Part shown: in pieces, positions 5,613 through 6,297 of the stretch
Layout of the letters: each line of letters opens with the position of its first letter
How positions within the stretch are numbered: the first letter of the stretch is position 1
DNA from: Escherichia coli
Lineage (GTDB): Bacteria > Pseudomonadota > Gammaproteobacteria > Enterobacterales > Enterobacteriaceae
Assembly: GCF_003334385.1 (NCBI RefSeq)
Contig: NZ_QOWN01000013.1
Strand: one strand, 5' to 3'
Length of the DNA: 64,000 nucleotides
Position numbers and translations under genes: made by a program
Notes under the pieces: model-generated
The model's input: only the letters and a program-made list of their open reading frames with translations
Databases searched by the model: none
Told to the model about the DNA's origin: nothing

Positions 5613-6297
5613 CATTTCACCGAGTCCTAATCATTCTTGTAACATCCTACACTTTTGTGCTTATTGCCTATAGTGAACCACGAGAATAATTAAAGACATA
5701 AGTGTTCAGATGACGGATATCTCATTAGCAGTGATATAACGTAAGTTTTTGTATCACTACACATCAGCCCCCTTCACAGCTGATCAAAATTGATCACGCT
5801 CCAATATGCTGGCAAGATGAAAATGATAACCAGTAGCACAATAACAACGATAGGCCAGAAAACCCATTGACCAAAAATGAATATCGATGTTTTTTGCTTT
5901 TTCTTATTAGTAATGCAAAAATGGCGCATATTGTTTTTGTTATGCAGATACATCAAGCGAAATTCCCATAACTAATTAGGATTATTACAAAAAATCTTCA
6001 CCAAATTTTTTAACCGCTGTTTGTTGTAATATTTTTGCCATATTTATAGTAACGAATTGGAATAAGTAACGACAACTTAGGGAATAACTCGATATAAACT
6101 CACCTTTGTAAGGGGGATGTTAAATATATATTAATTCCTGTGTTCCTGATTTTGCCCGGTAATAGAGAATTATTCTCTGAGAAGCTCATCATGATTGCAC
6201 CATACAAATATCATGATGATAAGAGGATATTATTCATTGATTTAAACAAAATGACAAAATCCATAGACCCATAGTCTGGGTACTATATAGGAGTGGT

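Follow-up and report, generated by a model that had tools for sequence, protein, structure and literature searches.

The ychF–ycgV spacer and the candidate reading frame

The stretch of Escherichia coli DNA analysed here (hereafter, the window; 64,000 nucleotides of contig NZ_QOWN01000013.1) contains, in this order, pth (3737–4321), ychF (4438–5529, plus strand), a spacer, ycgV (from 6298, plus strand), and dhaR on the opposite strand. It is almost identical to the corresponding region of K-12 MG1655, with four substitutions and one 1-nt deletion across 14 kb; the differences, among them those at 5713, 8645, and 8704, show that the source is closely related to K-12 but is not MG1655. In the window ycgV is a pseudogene (6298–9164), as one G of MG1655 near 8922 is deleted, and this 1-nt deletion breaks the 955-codon gene into two open frames, 6298–8937 and 8946–9164. 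A frameshift in ycgV is also flagged by PGAP in other strains (2011C-4251, PT62); frameshifts of this gene, found here and in several strains, suggest that selection on the locus is relaxed.

The earlier note on this DNA described a minus-strand open reading frame (ORF) of 60 amino acids at 5774–5956 within an AT-rich, 768-bp ychF–ycgV spacer. The spacer is indeed AT-rich and of that length, and the frame appears in the ORF listing with a TTG start. The features of the locus that are relevant to its reading are as follows.

5530..6297, both strands: ychF–ycgV spacer, 768 bp, 33.7% GC
5586..5611, both strands: ychF terminator hairpin AAAATCCACGCAATTGCGTGGATTTT, a G+C-rich palindrome with T-runs on each side
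5774..5956, minus strand: candidate ORF, 60 codons from TTG (5956–5954) or 59 codons from ATG (5953–5951), with the stop codon TGA at 5776–5774
5810..5884, minus strand: T-rich segment encoding a predicted single transmembrane (TM) helix IFIFGQWVFWPIVVIVLLVIIFILP; 47% T over 78 nt (5810–5887)
5891..5908, minus strand: A-rich run encoding a basic cluster, NKKKQK, just N-terminal of the hydrophobic stretch

The product of the ORF is MMYLHNKNNMRHFCITNKKKQKTSIFIFGQWVFWPIVVIVLLVIIFILPAYWSVINFDQL, with the ATG being codon 2, directly after the TTG; since an in-frame TAG lies five codons 5′ of the TTG, the frame cannot extend further. In MG1655 the ORF corresponds to positions 1,256,294–1,256,476 of the plus strand.

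The ychF terminator is a perfect palindrome with an 11-bp stem and U-tracts on both strands, and resembles a bidirectional terminator; given its palindromic structure and the T-runs on both sides, it could also stop minus-strand transcripts crossing the ORF. In about 630 E. coli genomes, only the ychF-proximal part of the spacer (~80 bp), including this terminator, is retained. Insertions are frequent immediately past the terminator, the site being a hotspot. Strain Ecol_656 (L008, 6204–8625) carries a tyrosine integrase and an ISEc24-bearing island in place of ycgV, and in NT1N28 (L009, 4202–4899) IS1 is found at this site, the spacer and the 5′ end of ycgV being removed. At the other end of the spacer, the 200 bp adjoining the 5′ side of ycgV (6100–6297) are better conserved than the rest and contain long runs that do not vary even between divergent haplotypes. 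Such a block is compatible with a ycgV promoter or 5′ UTR.

Length and hydrophobicity

The length of the ORF is no more than expected by chance: when the spacer was shuffled 2000 times with its dinucleotides preserved, 47% of the shuffled sequences had a frame of at least 60 codons, and their longest ORF averaged 61 codons.

The hydrophobicity is a different matter. The maximum Kyte–Doolittle (KD) value in a 19-residue window is 3.06, at residues 31–49 counted from the ATG, so that a single TM helix is predicted from the KD windows. The TM check proposed in the earlier note thus comes out in favour of a helix, and 3.06 is the highest value among 367 ORFs of at least 45 amino acids in the window, exceeding those of genuine membrane proteins. 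According to the positive-inside rule, the NKKKQK cluster preceding the helix would keep the N-terminus of any translated product on the inner side of the membrane.

None of 2000 shuffles of the entire spacer reaches a KD of 3.06, and 1% reach 2.5. In local shuffles of the 78-nt T-rich segment the mean best-frame KD is 2.0, which is already membrane-like, and only 0.3% reach 3.06, because T occupies codon position 2 in 19 of the 26 codons of the segment; these statistics are partly circular, since the ORF had been chosen for its hydrophobicity. Much of the hydrophobicity therefore stems from the local T-rich composition, yet it exceeds what composition alone yields.

Three other short ORFs of the window, all on the minus strand, have windows with KD of 2.5–3.0, namely, 43048–43302, 17267–17554, and 35802–36029. 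Judging by their size and order, these are probably annotated K-12 small membrane proteins, and the 84-aa one may be ymgE.

Expression signals and the promoter island

Two candidate expression signals are found on the strand of the ORF.

5963..5967, minus strand: weak Shine–Dalgarno-like GGGAA, spaced 7 nt from the TTG and 10 nt from the ATG that follow it
6229..6257, minus strand: putative sigma-70-like TTGTCA-17-AATAAT, the sole strict match on the ORF strand, ~270 nt 5′ of the ORF start

The anti-Shine–Dalgarno duplex of GGGAA has an energy of −4.2 kcal/mol, compared to medians of −5.4 for long ORFs of the window and −2.5 for random positions, and position 5963 within it is polymorphic, with A and T occurring at about 1:1. 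An internal ATG at 5929 has no Shine–Dalgarno sequence at all (duplex energy +1.9). The earlier statement that no convincing Shine–Dalgarno sequence precedes the candidate starts is roughly right, with the reservation that the weak GGGAA does exist at 5967–5963. A simple consensus promoter scan yielded the one strict site on the ORF strand listed above and none within 270 nt upstream of the ORF.

The spacer has been described from the point of view of transcription. It is one of 78 “promoter islands” (position 1255333, length 301), is reported to be bound by H-NS in all compiled ChIP data sets (code “A”) and to contain many promoter-like signals on both strands, the adjacent ycgV being flagged as foreign by one out of five compiled predictors (PMC3661553, Table 1). 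One feature of such islands is seen here, namely AT-rich DNA adjoining a gene that was acquired horizontally and varies in presence. Its placement relative to the ORF is as follows; we assume the U00096.2 numbering of the genome (+777 to U00096.3).

~5840..6140, both strands: promoter island 1255333_301, covering the ORF start, the region upstream, and the 5′ third of the ORF

The spacer is itself on the published list of islands, with H-NS binding reported; it has 34% GC, is located before an autotransporter gene, and is variably present. The published work covers transcription signals and H-NS binding and not reading frames, and the ORF is unmentioned there (PMC3661553). Two other reports concern the same spacer: a genomic SELEX peak of a minor sigma factor lies within it (PMC5493296), and a duplicated ybgC-tolQRA locus has been engineered in between ycgV and ychF, the exact site not being given (PMC11903333). 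Reports on sigma-54 and GalR that name ycgV were considered and rejected as evidence on the spacer, as the sites are inside ycgV.

A small hydrophobic intergenic peptide with a narrow host range could be the toxin of an undescribed type I toxin–antitoxin pair, restrained by a plus-strand small RNA that is antisense to it or overlaps it, and the promoter-like signals reported on both strands of the island (PMC3661553) agree with such an arrangement. The RNA data argue against it. No family reaches the gathering score in the Rfam scan, and folding across the ORF is not better than that of shuffled sequences on either strand (z = 0.12 for the minus strand, −1.23 for the plus strand). The ORF is single-copy in nearly all genomes (median of one place), truncated and frameshifted alleles are common (see below) with no visible compensating change, and no toxin model of NCBIfam or Pfam was matched. 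A peptide of 59–84 amino acids with a hydrophilic N-terminus of 22 residues is also unlike Hok, Ldr, TisB, Ibs, or ShoB. In general, the likeness to type I toxins (Hok, Ldr, TisB, ShoB, Ibs, DinQ, ZorO) ends with the short hydrophobic intergenic peptide and the narrow phylogenetic range, whereas the ORF differs from them in the lack of an antisense RNA family and a stable mRNA fold, the single copy, the longer hydrophilic N-terminus, and the common truncated alleles. We consider this explanation extremely unlikely.

C-terminal alleles

The 3′ part of the ORF is shaped by an indel between direct repeats, one copy of which is left in the window.

5809..5817, plus strand: CTGGCAAGA, the single leftover copy of the 9-bp direct repeat CTGGC(A/G)AGA

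Most lineages (including the sampled loci L003–L005 and L007) have an extra 75 bp (CTGGCGAGAAAAGG...CGATC) after codon 48, between two copies of the repeat. The window and K-12 are devoid of these 75 bp, and this in-frame deletion creates the C-terminus ...ILP|AYWSVINFDQL. If the insert is present and carries a TAA stop codon, the product has 67 amino acids and ends with ...GILPFR; if the TAA is replaced by CAA or TCA, readthrough yields 84 amino acids. The earlier note described a hydrophobic, helix-like end, which corresponds to residues 25–57. The TM-like stretch is there; the tail PAYWSVINFDQL, counted in the note as belonging to the helix, exists only in the deletion allele, because other lineages carry the 75-bp insert.

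The frequencies of these alleles were estimated by allele-specific megablast over 5426 complete genomes. The deletion junction (59-aa form) was found in approximately 2000 genomes, the insert with TAA (67 amino acids) in 1840, and the CAA haplotype (84-aa type) in 276. The three counts sum to 4118 genomes having the region, leaving approximately 1300 (~24%) that lack it, some of which have an integrase-bearing island or IS1 after the ychF terminator instead. At least three haplotypes of the N-terminal part carry the deletion (those of L006, L031, and K-12), which suggests recurrent replication slippage or spread by recombination.

Other alleles alter or disrupt the frame. L007 has a 49-aa form, L030, a two-codon in-frame deletion, L049, a nonsense allele (W30*), and L040, a frameshift inside the helix; in L022, the tail is frameshifted, in L041, a 322-bp deletion (5672–5993 of the window) removes the whole ORF, and in L051, the region is replaced by unrelated sequence. 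Hence the end of the protein differs between strains, and disrupting alleles occur as well.

L041 (metagenome contig PPYF01188438.1, ~9600–12740) also has a 91-bp deletion in ycgV (8592–8682), and of its ychF only the last 12 nt are left, preceded by DNA unrelated to this locus; the contig may come from an engineered strain or be chimeric through misassembly.

Substitutions within E. coli

In order to count substitutions, we sampled the locus without reference to the ORF, taking 14 complete genomes at even steps down the BLAST rankings and 36 metagenome contigs found by a 31-mer located 150 nt outside the ORF. The counts refer to codons 1–48 in 43 usable non-duplicate sequences. The three most divergent protein-database variants, P0085, P0087, and P0090, were left out of the statistics because they are ascertainment-biased. 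Their sources are metagenome assemblies (one from Logan, the other two hybrid OPERA-MS assemblies), and they proved to represent the same E. coli locus with homopolymer-type frameshifts.

Fifteen substitutions were observed: eleven nonsynonymous, one nonsense (W30*), and three synonymous, distributed over the three codon positions as 8/3/4. One of the two alternative frames would score more “synonymous” changes than the frame of the ORF. By the Nei–Gojobori method (NG86), the main haplotypes have dN of 0.053 and dS of 0.038, with dN/dS of 1.4–1.65, the ratio being undefined (dS = 0) in two out of four haplotype pairs. The dN of the ORF is close to the divergence of the flanking spacer (13/341 upstream and 12/154 downstream). 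As a control, the last 100 codons of ychF in the same sequences, counted with an identity filter, have 19 synonymous changes, all in position 3, and no nonsynonymous ones (dN 0, dS 0.14). According to a simple binomial calculation, three synonymous changes out of 15 match neutrality, and a typical E. coli gene would give a very different proportion. The encoded sequence shows no purifying selection, although 15 substitutions at few sites leave room for weak selection.

The earlier note had named conservation of the reading frame as a check. The outcome is negative: most changes are nonsynonymous, three different C-termini are common, disrupted alleles occur, and no relatives outside E. coli and Shigella were found among annotated proteins (see the next section).

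One block inside the ORF stands apart. In the 52 nt at 5874–5925 (plus strand, AAAAATGAATATCGATGTTTTTTGCTTTTTCTTATTAGTAATGCAAAAATGG), there are no substitutions in the 43 sequences and one 6-nt deletion, the flanks of the block being 4–8% polymorphic. It contains ATCGAT, which resembles H-NS nucleation sites. The invariance could be due to chance or to a regulatory constraint independent of the ORF.

These data bear directly on the possibility that the ORF encodes a genuine small protein of the inner membrane, young and confined to E. coli and Shigella, with the N-terminal 48 residues (the basic N-terminus and one TM helix) as its functional part, the tail free to vary, and expression divergent from ycgV when H-NS silencing is lifted. 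Such a protein would explain the extreme hydrophobicity beyond local composition, the positive-inside layout, the ATG with a weak Shine–Dalgarno sequence, and the bidirectional terminator downstream. The N-terminal 48 codons are open in ~90% of the sampled sequences and intact in most genomes, and the amino acid changes within the helix are mostly conservative (V/I, L/I, V/A). Some submitters, moreover, have labelled the product a membrane protein, e.g., in E. coli 042. On the other hand, dN/dS is at least 1, with the divergence equal to that of the flanks; a common haplotype carries G28D and P34H where the helix begins; some alleles have a nonsense change, a frameshift, or a deletion; the region is missing from ~24% of genomes; there are no homologues; no strict promoter match lies up to 270 nt upstream; and the curated K-12 annotation omits the ORF, yet lists four nearby small ORFs. 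Taking all this into account, we regard a genuine protein of this kind as unlikely.

Relatives and annotation

A word-indexed search of 5.8 billion proteins yielded 93 entries, all of which are variants of the ORF at 5774–5956. The named entries come from E. coli, S. boydii, S. dysenteriae, and S. sonnei, and a look-up of cluster members adds S. flexneri. Similarly, phmmer with the 84-aa form against 1.84 billion cluster representatives gave 14 hits, of which 13 (E < 1e-4) are copies or fragments of the ORF, and the fourteenth is a marginal match of 15 hydrophobic residues within a 451-aa protein; no homologue beyond this locus was found by phmmer among these representatives. Among the annotated proteins covered by these searches, no orthologues outside E. 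coli and Shigella were found. A scan of genome contigs of other species with the YcgV N-terminus produced just two contaminant contigs identical to E. coli. Neither Pfam nor NCBIfam has a family matching the ORF, and a plasmid search returned nothing but E. coli chromosomal copies that either had been wrongly labelled as plasmids or were located on one.

These searches also bear on whether the ORF is an eroded remnant of a larger membrane-protein gene, arrived with or truncated by the ycgV island, with a period-3 signal left from past coding. The concentration of T at codon position 2 (19/26) beyond local composition agrees with such an origin, as do the insertion and island hotspot just downstream of ychF and the second hydrophobic stretch encoded by the ancestral form with the 75-bp segment (84-aa form). 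However, neither the 1.84 billion representatives nor the 5.8 billion clustered proteins yielded a relative, long or short; such an origin is also at odds with the in-frame stop just five codons upstream of the TTG and with plasmid matches limited to E. coli chromosomal copies. Overall, this origin appears very unlikely.

As for the existing annotation, PGAP places no gene at the ORF in ~4700 complete E. coli genomes matching the spacer, and no gene is annotated at 1,256,294–1,256,476 of MG1655 (NC_000913.3). The MG1655 annotation of the same 64-kb stretch does include four small ORFs, ymgK, ymgL, ymgM, and ymgN, whose addition to the K-12 annotation presumably followed initiation-profiling studies. 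Absence from the MG1655 annotation is thus an indirect argument, and it would also be expected for a real gene that is silenced. Some GenBank submitters label the ORF “hypothetical” or “membrane protein” (that of E. coli 042 being among these), RefSeq does not. The peptide was found neither in a text search of the literature nor in the supplements of the Fesenko/Koonin catalogue of intergenic smORFs, which may be incomplete.

Discussion

The main question of this study was whether the hydrophobic ORF between ychF and ycgV is a maintained gene. It looks like one: its strong mimicry of a membrane protein meant that it deserved a proper test. At the same time, it has a chance-level length, neutral-like substitutions, variable C-termini, a distribution restricted to E. 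coli and Shigella, and no homologues. Most probably, it is an unconstrained frame arising from an A-run followed by a T-run in an H-NS-bound spacer and not a maintained gene, and we infer that it has neither function nor meaningful expression. The earlier note had left two readings, a spurious ORF and a missed small membrane protein, and the former is the better supported.

The likely course of events can be outlined as follows. The minus strand has an A-rich run and, after it, a T-rich one, which in this frame are read as a Lys cluster and then Ile, Val, Leu, and Phe codons, imitating a small membrane protein. The frame drifts as fast as the non-coding DNA on either side of it, and its 3′ end has been reshaped by the 75-bp slippage deletion at the 9-bp direct repeats and by the stop/sense polymorphism, the K-12-type 59/60-aa form of the window being the product of the deletion. 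Any translation of the ORF would then be incidental.

Several observations run counter to a chance origin, namely, the extreme hydrophobicity, the positive-inside layout, the ATG with a weak GGGA, and the mostly open N-terminus; besides, a real gene silenced by H-NS would escape notice in standard laboratory cultures. A comparison with validated small inner-membrane proteins of E. coli (of the ymgK/L/M/N type), which were discovered through comparative genomics, RBS models, and initiation profiling, shows agreement in the size class, the single predicted TM helix, the basic N-terminus, and the intergenic location. The ORF differs from them in its weak Shine–Dalgarno sequence, the lack of purifying selection, the variable C-terminus, and its absence from the curated annotation.

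Another parallel may be provided by the de novo “proto-genes” of yeast, TM peptides encoded by thymine-rich intergenic DNA. There, as here, a T-rich non-coding tract is read as a TM helix, is lineage-restricted, has no homologues, and evolves in a neutral-like manner; our candidate differs in its bacterial setting. By analogy, the N-terminal 48 residues could be a very young E. coli/Shigella membrane peptide, born from T-rich H-NS-bound DNA, evolving as a near-neutral proto-gene, and made divergently from ycgV when silencing is relieved; we consider this quite unlikely. Proof of its translation would turn the ORF into a tractable case of the birth of a de novo membrane peptide in E. coli, to which no evidence presented here points.

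An unconstrained frame in H-NS-bound DNA otherwise matters little, and this ORF is of value mainly for showing in detail how convincing a false positive can be: it demonstrates that a T-rich, H-NS-bound strand can convincingly imitate a small membrane protein while polymorphism reveals no constraint.
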